39,593 bases of DNA, from contig JARRRC010000001.1 in assembly GCA_037381105.1 (NCBI GenBank), forward strand, positions 1-39,593. Direction: 5' to 3'. Source of the DNA: Desulfobacterales bacterium. Lineage in GTDB: Bacteria > Desulfobacterota > Desulfobacteria > Desulfobacterales > UBA11574. Both the position numbers and the translations under genes were made by a program. The notes beneath the pieces were generated by a model that saw nothing but the letters and a program-made list of their open reading frames with translations, did no database searches and had not been told where the DNA came from. This document shows positions 18,040 through 38,644 of the stretch, piece after piece (the stretch's first letter is position 1; each line of letters starts with the position of its first letter).

Positions 18040-20011
18040 AAAGATAAAAACCGTAAACGAAGTCGAACTGATCCAGCGGGCGAAAAAGAATTTCAAATTT
18101 GATTTTGACGCCTGTAAGGAAACCTACGACGAGATGATCGACGATTTGTATTTCGGCCAGGGGATTAACCAGTGGCCCGACAGCGTAAGGGTAGCCCGCG
18201 AAAACGATAAGAGGCCGTGCCTGCGCATAAATAAAATGCCCCAGTTTGTCGATCGTGTGCTCGGAGATTTAAGACAGTCCAGGCCAACGATTAAGGCCAG
18301 GCCGTTTGATGATAGAGCCGATAAAGACACAGCAGAGATCATCGGCGGCATAATCCGTAATATCGAGCAACAAAGCGATGCCGAAATAGTTTACGACTCA
18401 GGCGCCGAGGCCATGGTGCGCTGCGGCTATGGAGCCTGGCGCGTCCTCACTGATTATGTTTCCGACGAGTCTTTTGATCAGGAAATCCTGATCGACAGGA
18501 TTAAAAACCAATTTTCCGTTGTTTTTGATGCAAATGCCAAAAAATGGGATAAATCAGACGCCAGACGCGCTTATGTCTACGAGGACATGCCGAGGGATGT
18601 TTTCAAGCAGCGCTGGCCGAAAAAAGATCCCTGTGATTTTTCTGCGGGCGGCAAGGACCAGGGCGACTGGATTCGAGAAGATACTGTGCGGGTCATGGAA
18701 TACTTTGAGCGGGATATTACCTCGCACAAGCTGTATTTGATTTTGCCGGACGGACAACAAGACACTAAAACTGTAACCGAGCTGCCCGCAGATTATCAAT
18801 ATGCAATCATAAAAGAGCGCACGATACAGGATCCCACAATCACATGGTACAGGATCAGCGGTAAAGAAATCCTTGAAGGACCTATCGAGCTTAAAGGGCA
18901 ATACATCCCGCTTATTCCCTGTTACGGCAAGGAAACCAATATCGAGGGAAAATCTTATTACAACGGCATTATCCGGCACGCCAAGGATTCTCAGCGGCTT
19001 TACAACTATTTCAGGTCCTACGATGCTGAAACAATAGCCCTGGCGCCCAAGGCGCCATGGATCATGACCGCCAAAATGCTCGGGACCTACAAGGCGCAGT
19101 GGGACCAAGCCAACGAACGCAATTTTTCATATCTGCTGTACGACCCAGACCCCAATGCGCCCGGGGTCAAGCCTGAACGCAATATCCCCCAAATGACAAA
19201 TCAGGCCATAATTCAGCAGGTCATGATTGCTGACCAAGAGCTGCACGACACAACCGGCCTGCAGCTTGCCAGCCTCGGCAAGAAATCAAACGAGCAAAGC
19301 GGAGCTGCTATCCAGGCCAGGGCCAAAGAGGGCGATATAGGACAATTTACCTACATTGACAATGTGATGCGGGCGATTAAGCACACAGCCAAAATTATTG
19401 TTGATCTGATCCCCTACATTTACGACACGGCCAGAGTACAGCGCATTATCGGCGAGGACGGCGAGTCGAAAACGGTAAAGATTAACGAGCAGTTCGAGGA
19501 CGAGAAAACAAAAGAATCACGCATATTTGATATGACCATGGGAAAATATGACGTTATTGCCTCGGTCGGCCCGAGCTACCAGACACAGCGCCAGGAAGCT
19601 CTGGCTGCAATGATAGATTTTGCTAAGATCCTCGATAACCAGCAGCGGGCAATCATCTCAGATCAGATTGCAGCCACCTCCGACTGGCACGGAGCCGATA
19701 GGATAGCCAAGCGCCTAAAGCGTACCATTCCGCCCAATCTTTTGGGTCCGGAAGATGCCGAGGAAGACCCGCAACCGCCTGCACCGCCAAACGAACAGGA
19801 GATTAAAATGCAGGCCATGGCGGATGCCAAGATGGAGGTTGAACAGGAAACCGCTGAAGTCGAGCTGGCTATTAAAAAAGCCGAGCTTGAAGAGAAAAAG
19901 GCCAAAGCCGCTATTGCCGAAGCCGAGGCAGCAATAAAAGAAGCCGAGGCGACAGATGTTGCCAGAGGCTTCCAGCGTCCCGATAATTCCAGCGCAAGGG
20001 CTACAGCGTAA
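18032..20011 (+). CDS. Portal protein (P22-like)
   Basis: 660 aa following TerL. It contains GQGINQWPDSVRVARENDKRPCLRINKMPQFVDRVLGDLRQSRPTIKARP and an Ala/Glu-rich coiled-coil C-terminal barrel, as in P22-type portals. Confidence 0.8.
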   Translation: MAKKIKTVNEVELIQRAKKNFKFDFDACKETYDEMIDDLYFGQGINQWPDSVRVARENDKRPCLRINKMPQFVDRVLGDLRQSRPTIKARPFDDRADKDTAEIIGGIIRNIEQQSDAEIVYDSGAEAMVRCGYGAWRVLTDYVSDESFDQEILIDRIKNQFSVVFDANAKKWDKSDARRAYVYEDMPRDVFKQRWPKKDPCDFSAGGKDQGDWIREDTVRVMEYFERDITSHKLYLILPDGQQDTKTVTELPADYQYAIIKERTIQDPTITWYRISGKEILEGPIELKGQYIPLIPCYGKETNIEGKSYYNGIIRHAKDSQRLYNYFRSYDAETIALAPKAPWIMTAKMLGTYKAQWDQANERNFSYLLYDPDPNAPGVKPERNIPQMTNQAIIQQVMIADQELHDTTGLQLASLGKKSNEQSGAAIQARAKEGDIGQFTYIDNVMRAIKHTAKIIVDLIPYIYDTARVQRIIGEDGESKTVKINEQFEDEKTKESRIFDMTMGKYDVIASVGPSYQTQRQEALAAMIDFAKILDNQQRAIISDQIAATSDWHGADRIAKRLKRTIPPNLLGPEDAEEDPQPPAPPNEQEIKMQAMADAKMEVEQETAEVELAIKKAELEEKKAKAAIAEAEAAIKEAEATDVARGFQRPDNSSARATA

Positions 20012-20595
20012 TGCATATCGTTAAAAACACCATAGACAGGCCTCTAAAAAACCATGATTTTTTGTTGATCACGGGAGACGGCAAGCCTTTACCCCGAGAT
20101 CTTGAAACGTTTATGGATCTCGGCATTGACCATGATGTAATGTGCATTGGCCGGTCAATCCAGATATACCCCGGGCTTGTTGATCATTATGCTGATGTTG
20201 ATGCCGATGCCGGCAAGTGGGTTGCTGAAAACCTGATCGAAAATAATCCGGACAAGGGCTACCCGATCAGGCATACCCTCGGCGATGTTGCCTGGTTTGA
20301 TGTTTGTTGGGAAATCGAAGATTGCCTAATTCCATCCGAGGATATTCTGTGGCACGGATCAACGGCGCTGTTTTGTGTTCTGATAGGAATTGCAATGGAA
20401 TATAAGCAGATTGTGCTTGCAGGCTGCCCTATGGACTCCAAGGGGCATTGGTATTTCCCGGATGAAACTTATGGCCCCAAATGGACGTTTGAAAGCTATC
20501 AATCCTGGTTTGAGTTTGCCGCAACAGAGGATGCTAAAAAAGTATGCTCTTTAAGCGGCTACACGAAACAACTTTTAGGCGGGTTCAATGGATAG
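20011..20595 (+). CDS. CstII/Maf (DUF115, MptE-like)-type putative nonulosonic-acid transferase, paralog 1
   Basis: DFLLITGDGKPL, DVMCIGRS and GSTALFCVLIGIAMEYKQIVLAGCPMDSKGHWY parallel C. jejuni CstII segments VIIAGNGPSL, DVFRCNQFY and ITSGVYMCAVAIALGYKEIYLSGIDFY (recalled from memory). Confidence 0.5.
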   Translation: MHIVKNTIDRPLKNHDFLLITGDGKPLPRDLETFMDLGIDHDVMCIGRSIQIYPGLVDHYADVDADAGKWVAENLIENNPDKGYPIRHTLGDVAWFDVCWEIEDCLIPSEDILWHGSTALFCVLIGIAMEYKQIVLAGCPMDSKGHWYFPDETYGPKWTFESYQSWFEFAATEDAKKVCSLSGYTKQLLGGFNG

Positions 20596-21247
20596 CAACT
20601 TCTTAAGCACGGTACAGCCGTACAGAATCGATCCAAAACGCTGGTGGGTTGATATCCCGGTAAAGGACGCCTCTGAGTTAAAGCCCGACACAGGCAATGA
20701 TGTCCTGTTAATCGTCGGAGACGGCCGGGACGTGCTCGCCGATCTGATTAATTTCTGGGGCATACAGGAGCCCGCCGATATCATGTGCATGAATTTTTCC
20801 CCTAAAATTATCCCCGAGGGGGTGCCCATCCAGCACTATATTGCAGGGGATAGCCACACGCCGAGCATGCAAAAAATAGCGGGACAACTGCCCTCCGGTG
20901 TTTTGCGGCATTGCTGGAACCAGAACAGCACGAATTTTGATATCCGGTGGGGGCGCAATACGTCCAAGGGCTGGACCGGAACAACCGCCAACCTCGGCGT
21001 TAAAATAGGCATTGCTTTAGGCTATATGAAAATAGTCTTGGCCGGCTGTCCTATGGATACCAGCGGCAACTGGTACCGCGACAGCCTGCCTGAAAACGAT
21101 GTAAAACGCGGTAAGGATCACACCGCGCACTTGTGGAAGTGGACCGAAATAGCATCCCGGCCGATAGGTCGGTTTATCCGCTCGATGAGCGGGAACACCG
21201 CCATGTTGTTTGGCGAGCCTGACAAGGAGTGGCTGCAAAATGTTTAA
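20588..21247 (+). CDS. CstII/Maf (DUF115, MptE-like)-type putative nonulosonic-acid transferase, paralog 2
   Basis: VLLIVGDGRDV, DIMCMNFS and GTTANLGVKIGIALGYMKIVLAGCPMDTSGNWY show clear paralogy to the preceding ORF and use the same motif set. Confidence 0.5.
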   Translation: MDSNFLSTVQPYRIDPKRWWVDIPVKDASELKPDTGNDVLLIVGDGRDVLADLINFWGIQEPADIMCMNFSPKIIPEGVPIQHYIAGDSHTPSMQKIAGQLPSGVLRHCWNQNSTNFDIRWGRNTSKGWTGTTANLGVKIGIALGYMKIVLAGCPMDTSGNWYRDSLPENDVKRGKDHTAHLWKWTEIASRPIGRFIRSMSGNTAMLFGEPDKEWLQNV

Positions 21248-21317
21248 AAGTAGTAACCGGCCCTTGGCCGAGCAAAATAACCGGCATAAGCCGAGCATTG
21301 AAGGGAAAGTATAGCAC

Positions 21318-22199
21318 ATGGAAAACGGATTATTAACAGAGGGTTTTATGGAAGGCGCTGAACTTGACATGGACGAACAGGGCAACCTGATCGAGCCAAC
21401 CGGGGATGAGCCGGAAAAACCGGACCAGACCGAGCCGGTAACATCAGAACCAGATGAACCGGAAGTAACAGGTACGCAAGAAGGTGAGCAACAGCCTGAA
21501 AATGTTGATGAAGAACCTGAAATTACCGCAACTCAAATGCGCGAGCAAATGAAAAAAATGCGGTCGCAGATTAACAGCCTGCATCGCAGATTGAGAAAGA
21601 CCAGCAAGGCACAGCCGGCTATTAAGGCCCCAGAGCCGCTGGACAAGTCAACAGCTCCCAAGATGGCGGATTTCGAAACCATCGAAGACTACGAAACTGC
21701 CAAAACCAATTGGGAGATCGACCAGCGTGTAAATGACGGCATCCGGAAAGCCACACAGCACATTGATTCGGAAGCGCAGCTTAAAGAAGAGCGCGCTGAA
21801 TTCGTTAACGATACTGTTTCTTTAGGAAAAACGATTTACAATGATTTCGATAAAGTTGTGCTCCAGGATAATGTGCCTATCACCATGGAGATGATAGACA
21901 CGGTTCGCACCATGGACGACAACGAAAACGTTACACCGGCCGATCTGCTCTATTACCTGGGCAAGAACCCGGCCGAGGCCACGGCATGTTCACGCATGAG
22001 CGGCGCCCAATTAATAAGGGCTCTGGCAAAGATTGAAACCAAGCTTGAAGGCATTAAGTCTCAAGCTACACCGAAACCAACAAAAACAATTTCCGACGCC
22101 CCGCCCCCTATAAAGCCAACGGACTCGACTGTGATCGTTCATAAAGATCCGACCAAAATGACCCAGGCTGAATACGAGGCATGGCGTATGGGAGGATAA
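21318..22199 (+). CDS. Putative scaffolding protein
   Basis: The gene lies between the portal and coat genes. It has a highly acidic N-terminus and a helical, charged, low-complexity body. The call rests on position and composition only. Confidence 0.45.
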   Translation: MENGLLTEGFMEGAELDMDEQGNLIEPTGDEPEKPDQTEPVTSEPDEPEVTGTQEGEQQPENVDEEPEITATQMREQMKKMRSQINSLHRRLRKTSKAQPAIKAPEPLDKSTAPKMADFETIEDYETAKTNWEIDQRVNDGIRKATQHIDSEAQLKEERAEFVNDTVSLGKTIYNDFDKVVLQDNVPITMEMIDTVRTMDDNENVTPADLLYYLGKNPAEATACSRMSGAQLIRALAKIETKLEGIKSQATPKPTKTISDAPPPIKPTDSTVIVHKDPTKMTQAEYEAWRMGG

Positions 22200-22209
22200 G
22201 GATTAGCAA

Positions 22210-23442
22210 ATGGGATCAACTCACACTTTGCTGACCCCGACTGTCATAGCCAAAGAAGCGCTCATGCGTTTAAAAAATAATCTGGTGATGGGCAATCGGG
22301 TCCACCGCAATTACGAAATGGAATTCAAGAAAATCGGCGGCACGGTTACCATCCGCAAGCCGGTCAAATTCACCGTAACAACGGGCCGCACCCGGGCCAC
22401 GTCAACCATCACGGAAAACAGCATCACGTTGCAGGTCGCAACCCAGAAACACGTTTCCTGGTCGTTTAACAGCGCAGACCTGACCCTGACCATCGATCAG
22501 TACAACGAGCGTTACATCATGGGCGGAACCCAGGTGCTGGCTAATGCCATCGACGCTGATTTGTGCGATCTTTACAAGGACGTTTATAACGAGGTCTGGG
22601 AATCCACCGGATTCGTCAACCCGGAGACGTTCATGGTCCTGGGAAAAGCCGGCCAGAGGCTTGACGAGGAAGCATCCCCCCAGGAAGACCGTTGCATCGT
22701 TTTTAACCCGGCCGCTCACTGGTCCATGGCAAACGCCATGAAGGGCTTGTATGTGACCGATGTTGCCGGTGCTGCCGTTAAAAAGGGCTACTTGGCCAGA
22801 ATCGCCAACATGGAAATCTATATGGACCAGAACGTTAAAGTCCATACAACCGGCGTTTTCCATGATACCGGTTCGACGGCTGCTATCCTGGTCGGCACGA
22901 CCTCACCGGCAAACCTTGCCACAAGCCTGGAACTGATCCACTTCCGCGTGGTTTCCACGGTCGCCCTGAAACAAGGCGATGTTTTCACCATTGCCGGTGT
23001 TTACGCTGTCAATCCTGTTTCCGGTCAATCCACAGGAGCGCTGCGGCAATTTGTTGTCACAGCGGACGCCTCCGCAGCGGCTACGGCTACCAGTGCGATT
23101 GTAACGGCCCATATCGATCCGCAGATCATCAACACGGGGCCTTACAAGACAGTGGACACCACCCCGGCCGCTGGTGCTGCTGTGACCATCGTCGGCACCC
23201 AAAACGAGCCTTACCCGGTCAATCTGGCATTCCACAAGAACGCCTTTGCGCTGGTGATGGTGCCGCTGGTAACGCCCAAGAATGTCTGGGGTTCTACAGC
23301 GGTAGACAGCGGATATTCGATCCGTGTGCTGAAAGCCTACAGCATCGATCTGGACGATGAAGTCTGTCGTCTCGACGTGCTTTACGGCACCAAAACCCTC
23401 TATCCCGAGCTCGCCTGCAGAATCAGGGGCGCGGAAGGATAA
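22210..23442 (+). CDS. Major capsid protein, P22 coat-like family
   Basis: The N-terminus is LLTPTVIAKEALMRLKNNLVMGNRVHRNYEMEFKKIGGTVTIRKP. The C-terminus is NLAFHKNAFALVMVPL...CRLDVLYGTKTLYPELACRI. Both fit the P22/BPP-1-type coat pattern. A stem-loop follows the gene. Confidence 0.8.
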   Translation: MGSTHTLLTPTVIAKEALMRLKNNLVMGNRVHRNYEMEFKKIGGTVTIRKPVKFTVTTGRTRATSTITENSITLQVATQKHVSWSFNSADLTLTIDQYNERYIMGGTQVLANAIDADLCDLYKDVYNEVWESTGFVNPETFMVLGKAGQRLDEEASPQEDRCIVFNPAAHWSMANAMKGLYVTDVAGAAVKKGYLARIANMEIYMDQNVKVHTTGVFHDTGSTAAILVGTTSPANLATSLELIHFRVVSTVALKQGDVFTIAGVYAVNPVSGQSTGALRQFVVTADASAAATATSAIVTAHIDPQIINTGPYKTVDTTPAAGAAVTIVGTQNEPYPVNLAFHKNAFALVMVPLVTPKNVWGSTAVDSGYSIRVLKAYSIDLDDEVCRLDVLYGTKTLYPELACRIRGAEG

Positions 23443-23460
23443 AATAACAACTTTGATTTA

Positions 23461-23479
23461 GGGGCTCGAAAAGAGCCCC
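23461..23479 (+). terminator. Stem-loop after the capsid gene, either an attenuating terminator or an mRNA stabiliser
   Basis: ggggctc gaaaa gagcccc forms a perfect 7-bp GC-rich stem. No clear U-tract follows. Confidence 0.45.
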
Positions 23480-23507
23480 AGATCAAGGTTGCTTGTGAAA
23501 GGTCTGC

Positions 23508-23981
23508 ATGAGCGACGAACAAGTCAAGCCTGGAATTTTTTTCGAAAGAATCGACAGCGCCGGAAACATGGTCAAGTATCCCGCCTGGCGCTATCATGCT
23601 TTGTATGAGCCCAGGATCGTCAACAACACCGAAGAAGACGAAAAGGCCAACGCCGAAGGCTGGAAAGACCCGCAGGTACCGGTTACGGCGGTTCAAAACT
23701 TTTCCAATTTTTACCATGACTTAGAAGATATGAACCAGCGCCAGCTTGTGGCCTATGCCCGTGATGAATACGGGATAGAGCTTCCTGTCGAGGCTTCAAA
23801 AGAAAAGCTTTTATGGGCTCTCTGGCAGATTGCCTGCAGATCGCCCAAAAACGAAGGTAGAATCGTACTGCTGGCTCAGTCCATAAGAATGAATTACGAT
23901 GAGACGCTTTCTGAAATAGAGCGCCTTGCCGGTGATATGGATAATTGCCAGGAAATTGAAAGCGAGGAAATATGGCTTTAG
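23508..23981 (+). CDS. Hypothetical virion-module protein
   Basis: 157-aa ORF in the structural operon. I recognised no family. Confidence 0.5.
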   Translation: MSDEQVKPGIFFERIDSAGNMVKYPAWRYHALYEPRIVNNTEEDEKANAEGWKDPQVPVTAVQNFSNFYHDLEDMNQRQLVAYARDEYGIELPVEASKEKLLWALWQIACRSPKNEGRIVLLAQSIRMNYDETLSEIERLAGDMDNCQEIESEEIWL

Positions 23982-24196
23982 AAGTTACCACCGGTTTCAC
24001 CGAAGACGGTCTTGTCTTTCTGCGTTTTGTGGGCCAGCAAGAGCAGTTCGGAAAACCAATCCAGTCAATCGTTACCATGGAACCGGACCAGGCTCAGCAG
24101 ATAGGCCAACGGCTTGTTGACGATTCCAAAAAGGCCAAGACGGCATGCAACCGGCCCATTATTGTAGGCCAGCAGCAAACCTTTAAAAGGGGGTAA
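23972..24196 (+). CDS. Hypothetical small protein
   Basis: 74-aa ORF that overlaps the upstream gene by 10 nt. Confidence 0.45.
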   Translation: MALEVTTGFTEDGLVFLRFVGQQEQFGKPIQSIVTMEPDQAQQIGQRLVDDSKKAKTACNRPIIVGQQQTFKRG

Positions 24197-24202
24197 AAGG
24201 TC

Positions 24203-24910: not shown

Positions 24911-24916
24911 TGTCCT

Positions 24917-26302: not shown

Positions 26303-26354
26303 TAGGTGGACTTAGCCGCGACCTTCATTAAAAAACAGTAGGACACAAGACATA

Positions 26355-27796: not shown

Positions 27797-28021
27797 ATGG
27801 CTATTATAAAATCCATAAGCGTTCCAAAAACAACGGATGTAAAAGAACTCAGGAAATGGTTTGAGCAAATATCAGAAAAATTCTCGTATCAAAGCTATGC
27901 CGGAGATCCTACGTCCAACATCCTGCCACGCTGGACAGGAGATCTGTGTTTGGATACGACCAATAACGATTGGTATAAGGCAACAGGAACGGCGGCCGCG
28001 GACTGGAAAGCCTTGACATGA
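27797..28021 (+). CDS. Hypothetical small virion-module protein
   Basis: The ATG at 27797 lies 2 nt after the upstream stop. The ORF track begins at a TTG at 27791. Confidence 0.45.
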   Translation: MAIIKSISVPKTTDVKELRKWFEQISEKFSYQSYAGDPTSNILPRWTGDLCLDTTNNDWYKATGTAAADWKALT

Positions 28022-28524
28022 AATTAATCGAGCTTTTAATGGAAGCGCAAGAAGCGGCTGTTTTCCGTGAAAACGCCAGTACTCATGCGTTTATTATAGC
28101 CGCCAAGGCCTCTGATAATTTTGCCCAGGCTGTTGCTGCCGCGCTTATGACCATAGGAAAATTTCATGCCCCGATAACAGCGGCACGGAACATCCTTGAA
28201 AACGCCGATAAAAGTTTTATCAAGGATGCTATCGCTGCTGGAACAAGAATTCCAGGATACGGGAGCAGTTTTGTTAAGGGTGGACAAGATCCGATCTTTG
28301 ATAAGATCGATAGCGAGTTGCTTAAAAATCATCAGCAACACCATGCGCGGATCTGGGAAATTTTCTCATGGATAAAAGAATATAAAAAAACAGACCTTTA
28401 TCCCAACGCAGCTTGTTATACGGCTGTTGTTTCGGATATAAGTTCAGTACCCTTCGGGGCTGAAATATATCTTTTTATCCAGGGCCGGCTTCCGGTTTAT
28501 GTCAATTTGTGGGGGCAGCTATGA
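28018..28524 (+). CDS. Truncated citrate-synthase-like protein with catalytic-residue substitutions
   Basis: 168 aa. RENASTHAFIIAAKASDNFAQAVAAALMTIGKFHAP parallels the citrate synthase segment EQNASTSTVR...GPxHGGA. IPGYGSSFVKGGQDPIF parallels GFGHRVYKxxDPR. LYPNAACYTAVV parallels PNVDFYSG. The second His and the Asp are replaced. Junctions on both sides are ATGA overlaps. Confidence 0.55.
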   Translation: MKLIELLMEAQEAAVFRENASTHAFIIAAKASDNFAQAVAAALMTIGKFHAPITAARNILENADKSFIKDAIAAGTRIPGYGSSFVKGGQDPIFDKIDSELLKNHQQHHARIWEIFSWIKEYKKTDLYPNAACYTAVVSDISSVPFGAEIYLFIQGRLPVYVNLWGQL

Positions 28525-29120
28525 TGGGTTTTTTCTCCATATTCGCGCTGCCCAGATCACGAACAGCATGGATGTCCAACTGGCTGACAACGGATAATAG
28601 CACCTGCCTGCACGAATTTAGCAACGGCGCCAAGGACGGCTTGTGGGATTTTATCCAGTCCATTGAATCCGATTTTGTCGGCATAAGCGAACCCGGCTTG
28701 GAGGCCCTGGACTATATCCCCAGCGATGTACTTATGACCTTCCCGATGGTTATAATTAAACAGGATGCAGCTTTTTCTTTTAAGAAATGCCTTTCGGCCT
28801 GGCCTTCGATTTATTCGGGCGAAAATATAAGAAACGTGCTTAAAAATATTCTTAATCAATGGTCTGATGTTTTGGACAAGCTTTCCCAATGCGAAAACTG
28901 CAAAACATTTTATGAGCATGATCTTAATGATTTAAATGTTTTATCCGAGATATGGGAGTACTTGCTTCCCGATATAAAACACAATAAGCTTAGAACAAAG
29001 CTACTCATGGAAATAGACATGAGCGTTAAATACAGGACGATAGATCAGGGGTATCAAATGATAAAGCGCCAGAAGGAAACGATTTCGGCGATAAGGAGCA
29101 TGCCATGGGAATGGGCGTAG
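28521..29120 (+). CDS. Hypothetical protein with a sulfotransferase/P-loop-like N-terminal motif
   Basis: FALPRSRTAWMSNWL resembles the 5'-PSB loop (PKSGTTW) of sulfotransferase-fold proteins. I recognised nothing else. Confidence 0.35.
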   Translation: MMGFFSIFALPRSRTAWMSNWLTTDNSTCLHEFSNGAKDGLWDFIQSIESDFVGISEPGLEALDYIPSDVLMTFPMVIIKQDAAFSFKKCLSAWPSIYSGENIRNVLKNILNQWSDVLDKLSQCENCKTFYEHDLNDLNVLSEIWEYLLPDIKHNKLRTKLLMEIDMSVKYRTIDQGYQMIKRQKETISAIRSMPWEWA

Positions 29121-30909: not shown

Positions 30910-33900
30910 GTGAACCTTCAGGAATTTAGGCAGAAATACCCTCAATATAATCAGATTTCTGATGAAGTTCTGGTTGATAATATTTACAAAAAATATTATG
31001 AGGACAGACTTGATCGCCAACAGTTTCTGAAATTGATAGGCTTCAAAGAGCAGGCACCCGCCCAGGACGGAATGCCCGAAACAGAGCAAGAGAGCCGTCT
31101 GCCTCTCGACACGGCCGACACATCCGCTGATAAAGCTGTTGGCGATCTTCTACCAGCACACCAGCCGGAACAATCCGCCCCACAATTAATGCCGGCGCAT
31201 ACAAAATACCTTCAAAAATTCGCCGATAGGGACAACACGCTTCAACCCCTAAGCTATGAAGACCCGACAGCAGAGCCGCCAGGCGGTCAGCGCTTGCGGG
31301 AAATGATAGGGGAGCCTTCCCAGGTACTGGAAACCGGTAAAAGGCAAGGCGCCCTGGCGGCAAAATCATTTAACGAAGCAACGGCCGGCTTTATGGACCG
31401 CCTTGATAAAATGGCAACCAAGGTATCTGAGATAACAGGCATGGAAAAAGGCGGGCTCTTCGAGGCTGCCAAAAATAGATATCTTGCCAATGCTGAAATA
31501 TGGAACAAGCGGGCCGGCAAATATGGTTTAACCGATGAGATTGTCGGTGAAATCGTCGGCGGGGCTGTCCCGGGGGTTATTGAATTCAGCCTTGGCCCGG
31601 CTTATTCCGGGGCTGTCGGCTATGCCGAAGGCGGTATCAAAGAAGGCGCCAAGAAGGCCGTTGAACGCGCCGTACTGGGAAAAATATTGCATGCCGTTAA
31701 TACCCTTAAAGTCCTACCGAGAACGGTAGCCGGCGCCGCAGTGGGTGCCACGGAAGCCGCCGCAAGGGGCGAGGATAAAAGGGGTATTGCCAAATCTGCC
31801 GCAGCCCTCGGATTGTTTAGCGCGGCTGCAACAGGCAATAAAAAGGTTGGCATCAAAGAGGCCGGCAAGGATTTTACAGAAACCATAAAGCAAGGAGCCA
31901 AACCAGACTCCGAAAAAATTAGAACGGAAACTGGAAAAGGAAGCCCGGGAGAAGGACTTGAAGGGCGAGAGGGAGGACGCTTACGCCTAAGGGACGATGA
32001 AAAAGAAATAAGCATCGCCGAGGATCGTGAGGCAGATAAATACAAGCCAGAATTTTTTGGCGGCAAGGAAAGGCCTGGGAAGGTACCTAAAATGCCTGAG
32101 ACAGGCCAAGACACCCCAGAGTTTTTTGGTGATAAGCGCAGCCCAGAGCAGATGCTTGATCTGAGAGAACAGCGCGACATAGAGCTTTCGGAAAAATTAA
32201 AAAAGGAATCCCAGGTCGGTCAAGTCGAAATAGATTTTGCGCAAAAAGGAGAGCCGTTCAAGTTCAATAAGGATCTGGAAGAAAACTGGAAAAAAGCCCA
32301 TGGTGTTAAAAAAGAATCCGTTTTTGCCAGAATAGGGCAGACAATGCGCTCAATGGGCCAGAAAATGACCCGTGAATTTGAGCACATGCCGAAAACCGGG
32401 GAATTTGCCGAAGCCGGTTTCGCCTTGCGCAAACTTGCCAAGCAAAAAGATGTCGCAATGGAACGCGCCATAAAAGACATCGGCGGGGTTGTGCTAAGGC
32501 TTGACAAGAAAGATTTCAACCTGTTTGAGCGCAAGGTGTTTATTGACGACATGGTTGAAACAGCAACCGAGGGAAAGAAACTTCCTTTCGGGCTTGATCA
32601 GAAAAAAGCGGAAACAGAACGCGCCCGGCTGGATGCGTATATAAAAAACAGCCCCATTGTCGAAGATGCATTAAACCGCCGCGGCCAAGTCTGGGATAAA
32701 ATAAAATCGGATTATTCCGATTCCATGAAATCAATCGGTTTTAATGTCGAAGAACGTTTTTCCAGAAAAAATTATTTCCGGCATCAAGTCCTTGAATATG
32801 TAAACATGAAAGGCCTTTTCGGAACGGGCAAGCGTTTGAAAACTCCGACAAACAGAGGATTTCTAAAATCGCGCCAGGGGTCCGCGCTCGATATCAATAC
32901 AAACTATCTTGAAGCCGAACACGAAATCATGGCTCAGATGATTTATGATACCGAGATTGCCAAAACGATCAAGCGCATAGACGATAAATACAATATCATC
33001 GATAAATTAAGAAAACAGGCCAAGAAAGAAAAAACTACATATGATCAAATTATCCCAGAGGGCTATATCGAATGGCAGCCCAGGGAGGGCAATGTTTTCT
33101 ATATGGCCGATACGATACCCGCCAGACTTGCCGAGAAGATCACCAGCGGGGCCATTGAAGAGCTGGGTATAAGCGCAAAGGATATCGGCAAGGCTCTTGC
33201 CATGGGCGGGAAAAGACGCTCCATGGTCATAAAACAGGAACTGGCCGACACGCTTGATAATCTTTACAAAACAAGATCGGAAAACCCGCTGCTTGAAGCC
33301 AGGCGAAAAATAATGCGCGGCTGGAAAATATGGCAGCTTATCAGCCCGCGGCGTTATCCAAAATACAATTTAAGGAATATCACCGGAGATCTTGACGCGG
33401 TTATCGCCGGCAACCCTGCTCATCTTAAAAAGGTTCCCGAAGCGGTCAAGGATCTTTATCAAGGCTTTGTGCATAAGAAAATGTCTCCTGACCTGCAGGA
33501 CTTTTTCGAACGCGGCGGCATGGGGGCGACACTCCAGGCCCAGGAGATGGGCAGCATCAACAGCCTTAAAATGTTCGCCAAAATGATTGAAAGAAAAGGC
33601 GAGCTTAAAAACATCCCGTTTAAAGCCTGGTCAAGCTATTGGAAAGCTGCCAGGATGTCTACCGATTTCCGCGAGGCTATTTTAAGATATGCATCATATT
33701 TAAAGCTCAAAGAGGAAATGGAGAAATCCTCCGATGGGCTGCCCAAAAGCTACCTTGCTTCGATGCCGGAGGAGGTCAAGGGCCTATCGAATATTAAAGA
33801 CAGGGCTTATCTGATGCAAAACGATTTGCTCGGCGCCTATGACAGGATATCCGTTTTCGGACAAGCCATGCGCGAGCAGATATTTCCTTTCTGGTCCTGG

Positions 33901-34941
33901 AAGGAAGCCAATGCGAAACGATACTGGCGCCTGTTTCATAATGCGGCCACGGAAGGCAAGCTGGCATCGGCCGTAGGAAGGAAATTCATCGGCGCTGCTG
34001 CTGTTAAAACTCCATATCGCGCTTATCGCATAGGCAAGTTTATGATCAAGGCGGGAGCGTTGTGGGGCTTGTTGCAGGTATGGAATAATACGCGCTACCC
34101 GGAGGAGGAAAAACAGCTTCCCGAAGGGATCCGCCAGAAGCCGCATATTATTTTAGGCCGCGATGATAAGGGTGAAATACAATATTTTAGCAGGCTCGGC
34201 GCGGTACCGGACCTGCTCGAATGGATAGGCCTTGATGCCGCTCCGGAATATATCGACAGGCTATCAAGGGGAGAAAGCCCGGCTGTGATCGCCAAGGAGA
34301 TGGCCAAACAGCCTGTTAATATTATGGCTTCCGGCAGCGTCCCGTTTGCCAAGCTCGCCCTTGAAGTAGCTACCCGCAGGGCTCTTTTCCCCGATGTTTT
34401 CAAGCCCAGGACAATCAGGGACAGGGGGTTACACATCGCTCGATCATTCGGTCTTGACAATGAATACAGGGAGCTTGTCGGTCTGCCGAGAAAGCCTTAT
34501 AAAAAATCCGTTAAAAAGGCTTTTATTTATAGCATCGATCCGCTTGAAGCCGCTTACGGGGAGACTTATTCGTTAAAGCAAAAGTATCTTAAAAAAATAG
34601 GCAAATACGGAGAAGGATTCTGGTTGACGACAACCGGAAACGATCTTTATAATGTCAAGCTTGCTATACGCTATGGCGATAACGAAAGCGCCGGAAAATA
34701 TCTTGAGAAATATTTTTCAGACGGTGGGACAATCAATGGAATAACAAAATCATTGATGGCAATGGAACCGCTTTATGGTATGAGCGAAAAAGATCAAACT
34801 GAATTCTTGAACTCTCTCAACAGAGATGAGCTTCTTAAGGTATCCATGGCTTATGAATTTTTTGCGAGGATGTTTGATCCTGAATTTAATAATTCTGACG
34901 AAAAAGCGATTGCAAAATTGGATAGCGAAAAGGGCGGGTAG
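30910..34941 (+). CDS. Large internal virion or DNA-ejection protein (1343 aa)
   Basis: Its size and position at the end of the tail or ejection module are typical of podovirus internal core proteins. I recognised no catalytic motif. The start is GTG. Confidence 0.45.
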   Translation: MNLQEFRQKYPQYNQISDEVLVDNIYKKYYEDRLDRQQFLKLIGFKEQAPAQDGMPETEQESRLPLDTADTSADKAVGDLLPAHQPEQSAPQLMPAHTKYLQKFADRDNTLQPLSYEDPTAEPPGGQRLREMIGEPSQVLETGKRQGALAAKSFNEATAGFMDRLDKMATKVSEITGMEKGGLFEAAKNRYLANAEIWNKRAGKYGLTDEIVGEIVGGAVPGVIEFSLGPAYSGAVGYAEGGIKEGAKKAVERAVLGKILHAVNTLKVLPRTVAGAAVGATEAAARGEDKRGIAKSAAALGLFSAAATGNKKVGIKEAGKDFTETIKQGAKPDSEKIRTETGKGSPGEGLEGREGGRLRLRDDEKEISIAEDREADKYKPEFFGGKERPGKVPKMPETGQDTPEFFGDKRSPEQMLDLREQRDIELSEKLKKESQVGQVEIDFAQKGEPFKFNKDLEENWKKAHGVKKESVFARIGQTMRSMGQKMTREFEHMPKTGEFAEAGFALRKLAKQKDVAMERAIKDIGGVVLRLDKKDFNLFERKVFIDDMVETATEGKKLPFGLDQKKAETERARLDAYIKNSPIVEDALNRRGQVWDKIKSDYSDSMKSIGFNVEERFSRKNYFRHQVLEYVNMKGLFGTGKRLKTPTNRGFLKSRQGSALDINTNYLEAEHEIMAQMIYDTEIAKTIKRIDDKYNIIDKLRKQAKKEKTTYDQIIPEGYIEWQPREGNVFYMADTIPARLAEKITSGAIEELGISAKDIGKALAMGGKRRSMVIKQELADTLDNLYKTRSENPLLEARRKIMRGWKIWQLISPRRYPKYNLRNITGDLDAVIAGNPAHLKKVPEAVKDLYQGFVHKKMSPDLQDFFERGGMGATLQAQEMGSINSLKMFAKMIERKGELKNIPFKAWSSYWKAARMSTDFREAILRYASYLKLKEEMEKSSDGLPKSYLASMPEEVKGLSNIKDRAYLMQNDLLGAYDRISVFGQAMREQIFPFWSWKEANAKRYWRLFHNAATEGKLASAVGRKFIGAAAVKTPYRAYRIGKFMIKAGALWGLLQVWNNTRYPEEEKQLPEGIRQKPHIILGRDDKGEIQYFSRLGAVPDLLEWIGLDAAPEYIDRLSRGESPAVIAKEMAKQPVNIMASGSVPFAKLALEVATRRALFPDVFKPRTIRDRGLHIARSFGLDNEYRELVGLPRKPYKKSVKKAFIYSIDPLEAAYGETYSLKQKYLKKIGKYGEGFWLTTTGNDLYNVKLAIRYGDNESAGKYLEKYFSDGGTINGITKSLMAMEPLYGMSEKDQTEFLNSLNRDELLKVSMAYEFFARMFDPEFNNSDEKAIAKLDSEKGG

Positions 34942-34948
34942 GTTATCT

Positions 34949-35305
34949 ATGGTAAAGAAAATAAACAACAAAATGACTGTCATGGGGTGGGGAAAGCTGC
35001 AAAAATGGGCCGCCGTCATTGTGGCTTTTTGCGTTTTTGGAATCATCGGCCGTTTCGGTATATGGGTGTTTAACGGAATAGCCAGCGCTTATTCAAACAC
35101 CATTAAGATAGAAAACAACGTGACCCATATTATAGCGCTGGGCGAGCATATTAAAAACATCCAAAAAGAGATGGGCGATAATATCAAGGATCTTCAAAAA
35201 ACAAGCAACCAGATAGAAAAAGACGTTGCCGTCAATAAGAAGATCCTTGAAAAATTAGATATAAAGTTTGAGCAGAAGGTCAATTCATTAAGGAGGGCTA
35301 AGTGA
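34949..35305 (+). CDS. Type-II membrane protein with a coiled-coil ectodomain, possibly i-spanin-like or holin-associated
   Basis: The ATG is at 34949. An N-terminal TM segment (AAVIVAFCVFGIIGRFGIWVF) is followed by a heptad-rich charged helix. The functional call is speculative. Confidence 0.35.
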   Translation: MVKKINNKMTVMGWGKLQKWAAVIVAFCVFGIIGRFGIWVFNGIASAYSNTIKIENNVTHIIALGEHIKNIQKEMGDNIKDLQKTSNQIEKDVAVNKKILEKLDIKFEQKVNSLRRAK

Positions 35306-36144
35306 CTAAAATTGTTGCCGAAATCGGAATAAATCACAACGGCCAGATAGAACTGGCTAAGAAAATGATCGCCATGGCGAAATACGCCGGGGCTGCAGCC
35401 GTAAAATTCCAGGTAAGAGACGTTGATACGGTTTACGCCGGCCAGCTTGACAACCCCAGAAACGATGGAAACCCGTATGGCTGGAAAACAGTAGGTGAGC
35501 AAAAGCGCGGGATTGAATTAACCCTGGATCAGTATAAGGAAATCAACACGTTTTGCGAAATGATCGGTATTGATTGGTTCGCCTCTTTCTGGGATCTTAA
35601 AAGCTTTTATGATCACATCAATCTTTTCGATTTCAAATATCACAAGATCGCCTCGGCCATGCTGACAAACAGTGAACTTTGCGAAGCCGTCGCCGCGCAA
35701 GGCAAGCTTACATTTATTTCAACGGGTGGTTGTGATCTGGACGAAATAGATGCCTGCATCGATAATTTTATGAAATTGAATCAGAATATTTGCATCATGC
35801 ATTGTGTCTCGCAATATCCTTGCCCGGATTCGGATTTAAATCTTAACATGATCCAGACTCTAAGGATGCGTTACCCGTGGGCGCGAATCGGATACTCAGG
35901 GCATGAAGTCGGCCTTTATCCGTCCGTTATGGCCATTGCCATGGGGGCGGAATGGATCGAACGGCATATCACCCTTGATAGATCAATGTATGGAAGCGAT
36001 CAGTCGGCGAGCATGGAAATCCACGGACTGCAGCAGCTATGCTCTGTGGCCAAAAATGCGGGCACCATCCTTGGGGATGGCATCAAGGTTGTCACTGACA
36101 AAGAAAGACAATGCATGCAAAAACTAAGGTATTGGGAGCAATAA
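35302..36144 (+). CDS. NeuB-family (sialic, pseudaminic or legionaminic acid-type) ulosonic acid synthase lacking the C-terminal SAF domain
   Basis: The motifs are IVAEIGINHNGQIELAKKMIAMAKYAGAAAVKFQ, HKIASAMLTN, FISTGG, IMHCVSQYPCP and GYSGHEVGLYPSVMAIAMGAEWIERHITLDRSMYGSDQSASMEIHGLQQL. The GTG start follows AGGAGGG by 4 nt and overlaps the upstream stop (GTGA). Confidence 0.8.
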   Translation: MTKIVAEIGINHNGQIELAKKMIAMAKYAGAAAVKFQVRDVDTVYAGQLDNPRNDGNPYGWKTVGEQKRGIELTLDQYKEINTFCEMIGIDWFASFWDLKSFYDHINLFDFKYHKIASAMLTNSELCEAVAAQGKLTFISTGGCDLDEIDACIDNFMKLNQNICIMHCVSQYPCPDSDLNLNMIQTLRMRYPWARIGYSGHEVGLYPSVMAIAMGAEWIERHITLDRSMYGSDQSASMEIHGLQQLCSVAKNAGTILGDGIKVVTDKERQCMQKLRYWEQ

Positions 36145-36151
36145 TCAATAC

Positions 36152-36475
36152 TTAATTCTTTTCCTCAACAAACTCCAAGCCATAGCCATTCGGATCATTT
36201 ACAAACTGTACCTTGCAACCGCTCGGCGCAACAAAATAATAATGATCCTTGTTTATTTCGTCCACCGTAAAAGCAAGATGCAATGAAAAACCGTCCTGGA
36301 ATTCGATGCATACACCCTGGGCGTTTTTCATCTTGACCCAATTAATGGTCCGCCCGTTGATAACATCCATGCCGGATTCGGTAATTGAGAAACCTAATAC
36401 GCTCGTATAATACGAGATTGTTTCTTCAAGATTTTGCGCGGGGATTCCGATGTGCCGGAAATTGATAACTTTCAT
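36152..36475 (-). CDS. VOC (glyoxalase/bleomycin-resistance/dioxygenase-fold) family protein
   Basis: FRHIGIPAQNLEETISYYTSVLGFSI...HLAF...DPNGYGLEFVE is a typical single VOC module. It overlaps the aminotransferase stop by 4 nt. Confidence 0.65.
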   Translation of the reverse strand: MKVINFRHIGIPAQNLEETISYYTSVLGFSITESGMDVINGRTINWVKMKNAQGVCIEFQDGFSLHLAFTVDEINKDHYYFVAPSGCKVQFVNDPNGYGLEFVEEKN

Positions 36476-37515
36476 CCGAGAACCTTTCTGATAATGGCTA
36501 TGCCTTTGTTAAGCTCTTCCATCGTGATATTCAATGGCGGCCCTATTTTCACGGTCTGGGCTTTCGTGTGGACAACAAGCAGCCCGGCTGCACAAAGATC
36601 GACAACGGCCTTGTCGGCATCGTCCGTGCTTTCAAAATAGATGCTTGCAACCATGCCTTTTCCCTGCACCGGCCTTGTCAGTTTGCAAAGCCCTTCTTGC
36701 AAGTGTCGGCCCATTTTCTCGGCATTTTTTACCAAATTAAAGTTTTCAAATTGGTCGACAACTTCAAGGCCAGCGGCGCAGGCTAATGGATTCCAGCCAT
36801 TGGTGGACGATAAATCCATCATGGGGTTATTGATTAAAACCGAGGGTCCAAGGATAGCCGATGCCGGGAACCCATTGCACATCGCCTTGCCCACGCAGAC
36901 AATATCCGGATTAAGATCATAATAATGCTGATACCCGAAAAGCTTGCCCGTCCTTCCAAATCCTGCCTGAATTTCATCGGCGATGAGGATAAGATCGAAT
37001 GTTTTAACCAAGTGCTTGATGCGCTCAATTGTTTTATCCTTATGGAATTGGCACGTAAGGGCATTGTAGGGCTCGAAAATAAGACACCCGGTCTTGTCCC
37101 CTGCTGTCTGGTTGCGCCAGTCAACCTCCCTGCCTGCGGCGATCTGGGCGCCCAACGTTTTACCATGGAAAGCATGCTCAAGACCCCAGATCCCGTTTTT
37201 GCCGGTATAACGCCGCGCTATCTTGTATGCGGCTTCCACGGCCTCGGTTCCGCTTGAAAACATCTGTGCCGCTTCAAACCCGGTAAATGCGCACAGCCTG
37301 TCGTGATATTCTCGCTTGACGGGATGGCCGAACTCATAACAGTGCATGAACTTTTCGGCTTGTTCGCATATCGCGTTGCCAACATCGATATTTCCCATGC
37401 CCAGGCTTGACGCGAAAATGCCGCTTGTAAAATCGATAAGCCCCTTACCGTCTGTGGTATAAACGGTTGAATCTTTGACAAAATCGATCTCTATATCGTG
37501 GATGCTGTTTATCAT
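36472..37515 (-). CDS. PLP-dependent class-III aminotransferase (short form, 347 aa)
   Basis: The motifs are FSSGTEAVEAAYKIAR, HAFHGKT, LILIADEIQAGFGRTGKLFGYQHY and PDIVCVGKAMCNGFP (Schiff-base Lys). Confidence 0.8.
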   Translation of the reverse strand: MINSIHDIEIDFVKDSTVYTTDGKGLIDFTSGIFASSLGMGNIDVGNAICEQAEKFMHCYEFGHPVKREYHDRLCAFTGFEAAQMFSSGTEAVEAAYKIARRYTGKNGIWGLEHAFHGKTLGAQIAAGREVDWRNQTAGDKTGCLIFEPYNALTCQFHKDKTIERIKHLVKTFDLILIADEIQAGFGRTGKLFGYQHYYDLNPDIVCVGKAMCNGFPASAILGPSVLINNPMMDLSSTNGWNPLACAAGLEVVDQFENFNLVKNAEKMGRHLQEGLCKLTRPVQGKGMVASIYFESTDDADKAVVDLCAAGLLVVHTKAQTVKIGPPLNITMEELNKGIAIIRKVLG

Positions 37516-37535
37516 GGCTTGGGTATCTCCTGATT

Positions 37536-37913
37536 TTAAATTAAATTTATGCCGCTTGTTTCCATGTCTTTACATATTTTGTGCACCATCTGTTGGTGCA
37601 TTTCTATCAAGACTTGCGCGGTTGCTGGAATCGTAGGGATAATTCGATCATCCAAATAATAGCTGTATTTGTAATCTATATCGGAGAAACAGGTCGAACC
37701 TACACAATGGAAACCAATATCATCTTTATTTTTAAAACCACGCACAGTCCCTACTTTCCTCAATGTATAAGTTTCATCTTGAACAGCGATCGTATTAAGT
37801 TCCTCACCGTCAACAACATCATTATGCAGGGGGATTTTGTGTTCGAGTTCCATAATCCTTAATTTTAGTTTTTGTATTTCCAATTCAAGAGCGCATTCTC
37901 TAAGCGTCTTCAT
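37536..37913 (-). CDS. Hypothetical protein inside the sugar cluster
   Basis: 125-aa ORF that overlaps the cytidylyltransferase stop by 4 nt. I recognised no family. Confidence 0.5.
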   Translation of the reverse strand: MKTLRECALELEIQKLKLRIMELEHKIPLHNDVVDGEELNTIAVQDETYTLRKVGTVRGFKNKDDIGFHCVGSTCFSDIDYKYSYYLDDRIIPTIPATAQVLIEMHQQMVHKICKDMETSGINLI

Positions 37914-38644
37914 GGTTTAAACACTATCCTTTCTTCTTTGCGCCGTGTGGCGTATTCGAATTCGGCTATTTTAAGATCGTGAAGCGTGTCTATTTCTATC
38001 GTGGGTTCGGTGATGTGCGCCATGACGTTTTCGCCGAACAAGGCGCCCGTGCGGACAATTTTTGGGCGGATGATATCGACAACTCCGTTTGGGTGATATG
38101 TTTTCGGATAAAAATGATTTGGCAGGTTCGCGCCGTCAACCGCATCAGCCATTGCAAAAATTCCTTTTAGCAGGCATTCGGCTTTAATTGTCATGCACTT
38201 ATAAGCGCTTTCGCTCATTTCATGCACGGAACGCAGCCCGGTCGCCTCGGGCACGGCAATCATTTTCTGGATGGCTTCTCCTATATCTTCGACGCGTCTA
38301 AACGGTGTCGTGGGCCGCAGGTAAACAACAAGACTGATGTCGCCCTCATCCACCCCCCTATTGAGGAAGTCTACAATAACGTCACGGTCGGTTGCATCGT
38401 CCGTTGCTGCGTGTTTGCGGCGGCGCATTGGGATCACCCTGTTATAAAAATTGTCCTGGTCATACATGCGGGCAACGTTTAATATTTCATCGTCTTCTGA
38501 TGAAATATAAATTCTGTCGATTGCCTCCACAATCGATGCGCTTGCTATTGACCATTCAAGCAGGGTGGAGGGGCCGATTTTTTGCAGGTTTTTGCGGGGG
38601 ACTCTTTTGCTTTGTCCTCGGGCCGGGATAAGGGCGACTATCAT
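37910..38644 (-). CDS. CMP-ulosonic acid (acylneuraminate-type) cytidylyltransferase, NeuA/PseF/LegF/KdsB-like
   Basis: The N-terminus is MIVALIPARGQSKRVPRKNLQKIGPSTLLEWSI...IDRIYISSEDDEIL. The IPARGxSKRxPxKN signature marks the CTP_transf_3 family. Confidence 0.75.
   Translation of the reverse strand: MIVALIPARGQSKRVPRKNLQKIGPSTLLEWSIASASIVEAIDRIYISSEDDEILNVARMYDQDNFYNRVIPMRRRKHAATDDATDRDVIVDFLNRGVDEGDISLVVYLRPTTPFRRVEDIGEAIQKMIAVPEATGLRSVHEMSESAYKCMTIKAECLLKGIFAMADAVDGANLPNHFYPKTYHPNGVVDIIRPKIVRTGALFGENVMAHITEPTIEIDTLHDLKIAEFEYATRRKEERIVFKP

Follow-up and report, generated by a model that had tools for sequence, protein, structure and literature searches.

A P22-like podovirus genome with sugar-acid genes and two candidate transferases in its head block

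The 39,593-nt contig analysed here over its whole length (hereafter the window) was deposited at NCBI as part of a Desulfobacterales metagenome-assembled genome (MAG), and is the complete genome of an uncultured P22-like podovirus. An exact 119-nt direct repeat at the two ends of the window (positions 1-119 equal 39475-39593) implies that the genome is complete and self-closing, with 39,474 unique bases, and its placement in a Desulfobacterales MAG is probably a binning artefact or a hint of the host. Our subject is a set of genes dispersed over this genome: two small adjacent paralogs in the head-morphogenesis block (open reading frames ORF1 and ORF2), the genes for a NeuB-family synthase, a VOC protein, an aminotransferase and a cytidylyltransferase near the other end, and a radical-SAM/methyltransferase trio. 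The original prediction, made from the letters of the window, had read them as a distributed, sialylation-like decoration system of a small (39-kb) podovirus. ORF checks and Pfam searches recovered every component that it had named, and the terminal overlap, the unique length and the P22-like gene content bear out its view of the genome. The features are as follows (aa, amino acids; CMP, cytidine monophosphate):

1..119 (no strand): terminal overlap, identical to 39475-39593
3994..5346 (plus strand): B12-binding radical SAM enzyme (PF02310, PF04055)
5350..6168 (plus strand): radical SAM/SPASM enzyme (PF13186, PF04055)
6098..6946 (plus strand): class-I SAM methyltransferase (Methyltransf_23/25/11/12)
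18020..23442 (plus strand): head-morphogenesis block hosting ORF1 and ORF2, with the candidate acceptors (PHROG matches to portal, scaffold and major head protein)
18020-20011 (plus strand): portal (PHROG match)
20011..20595 (plus strand): ORF1, 194 aa, minimal MptE-like/Maf-fold candidate CMP-sugar transferase, paralog A (fold and paralogy)
20588..21247 (plus strand): ORF2, 219 aa, minimal MptE-like/Maf-fold candidate CMP-sugar transferase, paralog B (transitive homology and fold)
21318-22199 (plus strand): scaffold (PHROG match)
22210-23442 (plus strand): coat (PHROG match, major head protein)
35302..36144 (plus strand): short NeuB-family synthase, 280 aa, no SAF domain (PF03102, E=1.2e-62)
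36152..36475 (minus strand): VOC/glyoxalase-fold protein, putative tailoring step (PF00903, E=1.3e-7)
36472..37515 (minus strand): compact class-III (omega-type) aminotransferase (PF00202, E=5.7e-62)
37536..37913 (minus strand): 125-aa ORF in the operon, included by position alone (no family match)
37910..38644 (minus strand): CMP-ulosonic-acid synthetase-like cytidylyltransferase (PF02348, E=1.6e-15)

Together, the synthase, transferase, aminotransferase, VOC and CMP-activation genes occupy 4,191 nt (10.6% of the genome), a share that rises to 7,212 nt (18.3%) when the radical-SAM/methyltransferase trio is included, in agreement with the predicted cost of roughly 10% or more.

ORF1 and ORF2 fall into the Maf/sialyltransferase fold group

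ORF1 and ORF2 are true paralogs (32% identity, E=8e-21). The ATG of ORF1 overlaps the stop codon of the portal gene (TAATG), and the two ORFs themselves share 8 nt (ATGGATAG), from which we predict that ORF1 is translationally coupled to the portal gene and ORF2 to ORF1. Neither translation has a hydrophobic N-terminus. Direct searches with the two proteins returned no match in Pfam, PHROGs, NCBIfam or, by profile, among PDB sequences, and tblastn found none in 50,697 GenBank phage records. The family to which they belong is large, with 228 clusters at 90% identity and 1,341 representatives at 50% identity, and when 68 diverse members were scanned against Pfam as single sequences, 18 matched PF01973 (MptE-like; best E=3.5e-6), five matched CST-I (GT42) and one matched GT29. 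The Maf flagellin nonulosonic-acid transferases belong to PF01973, formerly called DUF115. Moreover, hhalign paired ORF2 with Pfam-validated MptE-like proteins encoded next to viral NeuB genes at a probability of 91.4% (E=9.2e-7), in an alignment that spans the N-terminal G-x-G motif and the G-T-S...LG...G-x-D-x-D core.

Structure prediction with AlphaFold2 gave models with a pLDDT of 91 for ORF2 and 81 for ORF1. Foldseek matched the ORF2 model to PDB entries for human ST6GALNAC2 with CMP, the archaeal MptE pyrophosphokinase (8sd5), Campylobacter Cst-I and Cst-II, and ST8SiaIII. The ORF1 model matched the Magnetospirillum Maf glycosyltransferase 5mu5 (TMq 0.54), the mammalian sialyltransferases 2wml and 6apl and the thiamin pyrophosphokinase 3k94; one of its sialyltransferase matches is an ST3Gal. 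In BFVD the matches of ORF2 were MptE-like, DUF115 and GT29 proteins together with a herpesvirus sialyltransferase, so that nearly all top PDB and BFVD matches come from the Maf/MptE/GT42/GT29 fold group. Individually these scores are weak to moderate, yet they are mutually coherent, and the models thus support placing ORF1 and ORF2 in the Maf/sialyltransferase fold group, with the pyrophosphokinase branch of the same fold as the main alternative. The label of candidate CMP-sugar transferase given to both genes in the original prediction is therefore supported at the level of fold and superfamily, by transitive Pfam matches, hhalign and AlphaFold/Foldseek.

The cassette encodes enzymes of the NeuB and CTP_transf_3 families

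Residues 22-262 of the synthase cover profile positions 1-241 of the 241 in PF03102, that is, the full TIM-barrel domain. Its motifs E..NH, KFQ, HKIAS, YP, SGH, ERH and SDQ align with those of 2wqp (N. meningitidis NeuB), 8h2c (PseI) and 6ncs, and the motif residues, which include the metal-binding histidines and those that bind phosphoenolpyruvate (PEP), are invariant across the phage homologs. Its nearest solved relatives are Neu5Ac and pseudaminic acid synthases. Against the NeuB equivalog model (TIGR03569) the protein scores 211.9 bits, below the cut-off of 399.65, and against the PseI equivalog (TIGR03586) 158.7 bits, below the cut-off of 340.25. An AAGGAGG Shine-Dalgarno motif precedes the GTG start codon, which itself overlaps the stop codon of the late-strand ORF before it (34826-35305). 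That ORF, whose true start is likely an internal Met near 34949, just after the gene for a 1343-aa protein, encodes one transmembrane segment and a coiled-coil tail and has no family match.

The cytidylyltransferase passes the cut-off of PF02348 (CTP_transf_3; 58 bits versus 22.6). Its best NCBIfam model is PseF, where it fails the cut-off (81.4 bits versus 205.7), its scores against KdsB models reach at most 40 bits, and its PDB relatives are NeuA/CMP-Neu5Ac synthetases. The class-III aminotransferase is ArgD/GabT-like, with the DEIQ and GK (pyridoxal phosphate-binding lysine) motifs readable in the translation. The VOC gene lies between the aminotransferase and NeuB genes both in relatives of the phage and in cellular cassettes, whereas the 125-aa ORF at 37536-37913 has no match in Pfam, PHROGs or NCBIfam and no homolog in the related loci. 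As to the predicted sialylation, the term holds as an analogy only, since the synthase lies below both equivalog cut-offs and carries no SAF domain.

The B12-binding radical SAM enzyme is a probable C-methylase or catalyst of a rearrangement step on the sugar. Its gene directly follows NeuB in relatives, and it is 35% identical over 476 aa to its counterpart in a Leptospirales MAG (contig CAYMPH010000003, locus L161; see below). The SPASM gene is syntenic with it in all relatives and its product is 38% identical to the L161 counterpart, and the methyltransferase gene is the last of the cassette in relatives. The TTG start listed for the methyltransferase overlaps the preceding gene by 71 nt, and the true start probably lies downstream. 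Phosphonate or fosfomycin-like chemistry was considered because CMP-activated substrates and B12 radical-SAM enzymes occur there too, and was rejected: no PEP mutase is seen among the annotated genes and the synthase is clearly NeuB.

The precursor is predicted to come from the host

We built hidden Markov models (HMMs) for epimerase/dehydratase, DegT, SDR, SIS and xylose-isomerase-TIM families from viral NeuB neighbourhoods, and none of these matched anywhere in the window. The only window genes matched by models from such neighbourhoods were seven: NeuB, the CTP-transferase, the aminotransferase, the VOC gene and the radical-SAM/methyltransferase trio. Many of the larger phage loci do contain the modelled precursor families. 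Among the annotated genes of the window neither an N-acetyltransferase nor an enzyme of the NeuC/PseG/LegG type was seen, though no HMM or Pfam scan specific to these two covered all ORFs. Without precursor enzymes in the window, the pathway must begin from a host-made sugar, and the assertion that the phage holds a full set of enzymes for synthesis, activation and attachment of the sugar does not stand, since the 4,6-dehydratase/epimerase, DegT, SDR and SIS steps were not found by HMM.

The transferase pair and the cassette co-occur in P22-like relatives

Relatives were drawn from IMG/VR, ENA, Logan and NCBI and are P22-like phages with 40-77% protein identity to the window. In these relatives the cassette is read from one strand in the order VRR-NUC/DUF1064, CTP-transferase, aminotransferase, VOC, NeuB, B12-radical-SAM, SPASM-radical-SAM and methyltransferase, and in many of them the very next genes are TerS, TerL, portal, ORF1, ORF2, scaffold and coat. 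Thus, the trio at 3994-6946, offered in the original prediction as only possibly part of the tailoring machinery, sits in one cassette with the sugar genes in relatives, which favours that assignment. NeuB and the ORF1/ORF2 pair occur together on 10 contigs, the window included (among them the 39,729-bp k127_289375 from seawater, retrieved as two separate halves, and the 41,920-bp JBGGGX010000221), and three further contigs carry the radical-SAM cassette with ORF1/2. Four contigs, each seen in part, were left out of this tally; the contigs P0004, P0020, L219 and L220 were not classed for the cassette. Among the classed contigs no discordant genome is proven inside the clade, and with 10 concordant contigs the comparison proposed earlier, of transferase paralogs against sugar genes, favours a link between the two modules.

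ORF1 and ORF2 lie between portal and scaffold in the window and in more than 20 relatives. Each of 17 relatives retains an ORF1-type gene followed by an ORF2-type gene, which suggests that the duplication is old and that both copies are needed, and some relatives have a third paralog among their connector/tail genes. Cultured relatives such as Shewanella phage X14 have neither ORF1/2 nor NeuB; the portal-scaffold-coat array of X14 has no gene between portal and scaffold, so that ORF1/2 are an insertion relative to X14. In the phage collection the cytidylyltransferase had a single match, a Moritella viscosa record. Two smaller observations concern the same region and gene class in relatives. 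A GIY-YIG/NUMOD3 homing endonuclease gene lies between the ORF2 ortholog and scaffold of one contig (L221, 10680-11249), and in the closest relatives, the phages P0004 and P0020, an additional radical-SAM gene lies among the tail/ejection genes (L205 17737-18744 and L209 14002-14964; PF04055 plus PF23545 Zn_ribbon_HMPTM, 320-335 aa), where the window has unrelated small ORFs (28018-29120).

The scattered layout of the window is a property of its own sub-clade. There, as seen by comparison with the ~90%-identical Ga0599237_0000027, the recombination module separates the operon of CTP-transferase, aminotransferase, VOC and NeuB genes from the radical-SAM trio, to which the operon has the opposite orientation. 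A second change, an inversion in place of the 843-bp NeuB gene (35306-36148), is confined to the window; in all other relatives this gene is co-directional with the other three. No flanking inverted repeats longer than 21 nt (76% complementary) were found at this inversion. All parts of the cassette have been retained despite both rearrangements. Hence, the system is distributed in the window, as had been described, but relatives outside the sub-clade carry it as one contiguous cassette.

Similar gene sets recur outside the clade

As the relatives form one clade, independent recurrences are the stronger evidence for a link. Short NeuB genes were found on more than 575 IMG/VR contigs, and neighbouring genes were counted at the best 80 loci: a CTP-transferase lies within 10 kb in 73 of these 80, an MptE-like gene in 38, a VOC gene likewise in 38, and a class-III aminotransferase, adjoining the CTP-transferase, in 30. 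On large marine phage contigs the MptE-like genes often abut NeuB and score above the Pfam cut-off. A second podovirus lineage with another coat family, represented by L048 and the 37,095-bp Hainich contig L216, has the order TerL, portal, scaffold, coat, two small genes, a methyltransferase-MptE fusion, NeuB, a class-IV aminotransferase, SPASM, CTP-transferase and adaptor/head-closure, and thus holds the entire system inside its head module. On a further contig (L113) the CTP-transferase and aminotransferase genes lie between scaffold and coat. In T7-like podoviruses (L030 9364-10519; L024; L028) a methyltransferase gene and an MptE-like gene are located between coat and tail-tubular A.

The cassette also has a chromosomal counterpart. 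In the Leptospirales MAG, genes for NeuB, CTP-transferase, aminotransferase, VOC, methyltransferases, SPASM and B12-radical-SAM are contiguous and co-directional, and the enzymes, of the same six families, are 29-46% identical to the phage proteins, which suggests that the phage cassette is a captured cellular unit. In larger phage and cellular loci, short NeuB genes stand beside dehydratase/epimerase and DegT genes typical of nonulosonic-acid clusters. Several large IMG/VR contigs (~48-158 kb; L053, L071, L081, L088, L111 and similar ones) have two NeuB, two CTP-transferase and two MptE-like genes, a doubling that would imply two parallel sugar-acid pathways. These large glycan islands also hold GT4, DegT and epimerase/dehydratase genes, and GT10 is found in other NeuB loci.

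Other features of the genome

The P22-like gene set of the window comprises TerS, TerL, portal, scaffold, a P22-type coat, adaptor, head-closure and ejection proteins. Further genes encode a RecT/PD-(D/E)XK recombination module, a DnaB helicase, a replication initiator, a DNA methyltransferase (phrog_363, 9306-10178, plus strand) and a Mom-like DNA modification protein (phrog_1384, 622-1131, minus strand), the last two of which suggest that the phage DNA itself may be modified. The portal shares ~40% identity with its counterparts in Vibrio phage VvAW1 and Shewanella phage X14, and megablast of the window against GenBank phages gave no DNA match. The homolog search with the 1343-aa large virion protein yielded just seven matches. 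We found no tRNA genes in the window, an Rfam scan for riboswitches (e.g. the cobalamin riboswitch) returned nothing, and no unassigned ORF of 250 aa or more is left in the window as an integrase candidate.

Short repeats were also noted. A 45-nt unit that spans an ATG and the beginning of the coding sequence is exactly duplicated in tandem at 533-622, where the minus-strand ORF 179-625 has its 5' end, and a third copy (62% identical) lies at 39082-39126 inside ORF 38881-39588. Two tandem 36-nt repeats (92% identical) are found at 8628-8699, within a small early-region ORF.

Proposed pathway and alternatives

We lean towards reading these genes as a cassette of bacterial type, captured by the phage, for a CMP-activated 3-deoxy-2-ulosonic acid that NeuB makes and that ORF1 and ORF2 transfer to virion proteins; the acid is most likely a nonulosonic acid. 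The searches described above give the enzyme identities, and from these we infer in which order the enzymes act, on what substrate and with which acceptor. In the proposed pathway the short NeuB would condense a host-supplied aldose with PEP. The class-III aminotransferase and the VOC protein would aminate and rearrange the sugar or its side chain, and the B12-radical-SAM enzyme, the SPASM-radical-SAM enzyme and the methyltransferase might add C-, N- or O-methyl groups or other tailoring. The cytidylyltransferase would then use CTP to form the CMP-sugar. ORF1 and ORF2, cytoplasmic, translationally coupled and expressed with the head genes, would transfer the sugar from this donor to acceptor proteins, the two paralogs probably acting as a heterodimer or else serving two sites or linkages. 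The likeliest acceptors would be the virion proteins of the phage itself, the coat first, during assembly, in parallel to the action of Maf on flagellin. The virion is the most economical acceptor because the transferase genes and the cassette have repeatedly been inserted among head/connector genes and there is no sign of lysogeny. Residues ~215-300 of the coat and its orthologs form an insertion-domain-like region of hypervariable Ser/Thr/Ala/Gly-rich loops with indels; that these Ser/Thr-rich loops are glycosylation sites is possible, a weak hint from sequence that we do not count as evidence. DNA was also considered as the acceptor and discarded, as no deazaguanine or hydroxymethyl-pyrimidine pathway genes were seen. 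An apparent link between neuB and a T-hypermodified phage in PMC12686479 proved to be a false text match to the author name 'Neubort'.

A number of observations weigh against this interpretation. The phage is uncultured, the glycan is proposed from its genes alone, and gene position is the only ground for taking the virion as acceptor. Neither ORF1 nor ORF2 matches PF01973 at E<=0.01 or even at E<=1, nor any other curated family. Their fold matches are weak (PDB E=2e-3 to 7e-2 and TM 0.42-0.54; with BFVD included, weak to moderate and TM 0.42-0.56) and include MptE and thiamin pyrophosphokinases, which share the fold and are not glycosyltransferases, and their N-terminal motif reads V/T-G-D-G-(R/K), with no Pro-Ser, where the family has GxGPS. 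The synthase ends at 280 aa without the C-terminal SAF domain and fails both equivalog cut-offs, so its product may not be a nonulosonic acid, and the precursor-forming enzymes of the Pse, Leg and Neu pathways were not found in the window by these HMMs or among its annotated genes. The co-occurrences come from one clade with conserved synteny and are not independent events. P0004, which has the closest ORF2 (77% identity), shows no cassette in the 28 of 42 kb that were seen; the unseen 14 kb is where the cassette would be expected. Finally, a T7-like contig (37,726 bp, 97% examined) has an MptE-like gene and a methyltransferase gene and no NeuB, CTP-transferase, aminotransferase, VOC or radical-SAM gene, which indicates that distant members of the family can function where the phage has no sugar genes, presumably with a donor made by the host.

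Some of these points fit other explanations. With the same pathway and transferases, the acceptor could be a host structure made in the cytoplasm (flagellin, pilin, S-layer protein or a lipid-linked glycan), such that the surface of the infected cell is remodelled, for example to block superinfection or to stop progeny from adsorbing to debris. Maf enzymes, the closest characterised relatives of the ORF1/2 fold, act on flagellin, and Maf 5mu5 is a fold match of ORF1; the NeuB islands of large marine phages also hold polysaccharide-type GT4 and GT10 transferases, and in the window the CTP-transferase, aminotransferase and VOC genes are co-oriented with the recombination genes and not with the late genes. 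We nonetheless think a host acceptor unlikely: ORF1/2 and their distant relatives are embedded in head/tail modules of at least three podovirus architectures, ORF1 appears translationally coupled to the portal gene, and the lack of an integrase-sized unassigned ORF makes lysogenic conversion unlikely. That ORF1 and ORF2 are not transferases at all, and instead nucleotide-dependent kinases/pyrophosphokinases or head-assembly accessories beside a separate auxiliary module that feeds host glycans, would account for the pyrophosphokinases 8sd5 and 3k94 among their top fold matches, for the missing direct family match and for distant members without sugar genes. This seems to us quite improbable given the strict co-occurrence of the pair with the cassette inside the clade, the Pfam-validated MptE-like genes that abut NeuB in unrelated phages, the methyltransferase-MptE fusions in NeuB cassettes, and the CST-I and GT29 matches of both profile and fold.

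Others concern the sugar and the link itself. A SAF-less NeuB acting on another aldehyde might yield a Kdo-like or otherwise unusual ulosonic acid that is heavily remodelled before CMP activation, in which case the product would not have nine carbons and 'sialylation-like' would be true of the enzyme families alone. The low equivalog scores (212 versus 400 bits for NeuB, 159 versus 340 for PseI) and the missing SAF domain point this way, as do the absence of PseB/C/H/G, LegB/C/H/G and NeuC equivalents among what was seen in the window, an aminotransferase of class III in place of the DegT type of known Pse/Leg pathways, and the weak KdsB matches of the cytidylyltransferase. We place little weight on this possibility, because the nearest solved synthases make Neu5Ac or pseudaminic acid and the catalytic residues are conserved, the cytidylyltransferase fits PseF and NeuA better than KdsB, and short NeuB genes lie beside dehydratase/epimerase and DegT genes in larger phage and cellular loci. 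Mere common descent, with several moron cassettes hitch-hiking together and no functional tie, would suffice for ten co-occurrences that all fall within one P22-like clade of conserved gene order and are not independent. It strikes us as very improbable, however, as MptE-like genes accompany NeuB and CTP-transferase independently in large marine phages, in the second podovirus lineage and in cellular genomes, and every part of the cassette was kept when it was rearranged in the sub-clade of the window.

Returning to virion decoration as the reading that we prefer, a bolder version of it can be put forward only tentatively, and we would sooner doubt than assert it. In this version a widespread group of podoviruses from the environment, and by extrapolation many of the larger marine phages, would attach an O-linked sugar to their own capsids. 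The sugar would be a previously undescribed nonulosonic acid, aminated, radical-SAM-methylated and made by the phage, and ORF1/2 would form a new minimal, heterodimeric sub-family of the Maf/sialyltransferase fold acting at head assembly. Such a system would be the first sialic-acid-type decoration of a phage particle to be encoded wholly by the virus, the precursor apart.

Implications and comparison with known systems

If virion decoration by this system is correct, nearly a fifth of a small phage genome would be devoted to an acidic, sialic-acid-like sugar on the particle. Such a sugar would alter how the particle interacts with hosts, grazers, mucus and immune systems. More than 1,000 clusters of 'hypothetical' proteins would gain a function as minimal CMP-sugar transferases, and the neuB and neuA genes in viromes would be parts for virion decoration rather than generic boosters of host metabolism. 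The system is compact (~10 genes), and a cassette in which NeuB is joined by B12-radical-SAM enzymes, present in bacteria and phages alike, is a likely route to new sugars and enzymes.

As judged by their matches, the enzymes themselves belong to known superfamilies. Our literature searches found no description of phage-encoded Maf-like transferases, of their placement in a capsid module or of a cassette joining NeuB with B12-radical-SAM enzymes. The closest precedent for the outcome is glycosylation of mycobacteriophage virions, by transferases that are reportedly unrelated to MptE-like proteins and use host nucleotide sugars. According to PMC12619734, which cites Freeman et al. (2023, Cell Host Microbe), enzymes encoded by these phages glycosylate proteins of the capsid and the tail, and recognition of the particle depends in part on the glycans; a glycosylated virion is also the outcome proposed here. 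Unlike the window, that system is summarised in PMC12619734 without sugar-acid synthesis or CMP-activation genes. In viromes, Roux et al. (2013) recorded 126 neuB matches in eight viromes and also counted neuA (PMC3877843); these are catalogue entries, with no transferase partner, tie to capsid genes, pathway or acceptor.

With the GT42 (Cst-I/Cst-II) and GT29 sialyltransferases, ORF1 and ORF2 appear to share the CMP-sugar-binding fold, as judged from Foldseek and profile matches. They differ from them in an identity of 9-14%, a TM score below ~0.5, an N-terminal GDG, and sialyl motifs and catalytic residues that could not be mapped. The Leptospirales cassette has the same six contiguous families, but it is chromosomal and has no MptE-like gene within 10 kb. 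A parallel in overall logic is offered by the bacterial flagellin nonulosonic-acid islands (PseI/LegI, PseF/LegF and Maf, in Campylobacter, Helicobacter, Aeromonas and Magnetospirillum), which combine the same three enzyme classes (NeuB-family synthase, CTP_transf_3 activator and MptE-like transferase) and in which Maf enzymes use CMP-pseudaminic or CMP-legionaminic acid. Unlike these islands, the present system is encoded by a phage, has two conserved single-domain paralogs of 194-219 aa in a capsid block in place of a multi-domain Maf (5mu5, 632 residues), and comes without precursor genes, a class-III aminotransferase, a VOC protein and two radical-SAM enzymes replacing PseB/C/H/G. Like them, it would apply a cytoplasmic transferase, here proposed from genes alone, to a self-assembling structural protein, and it is a Maf, 5mu5, that the fold of ORF1 matches.

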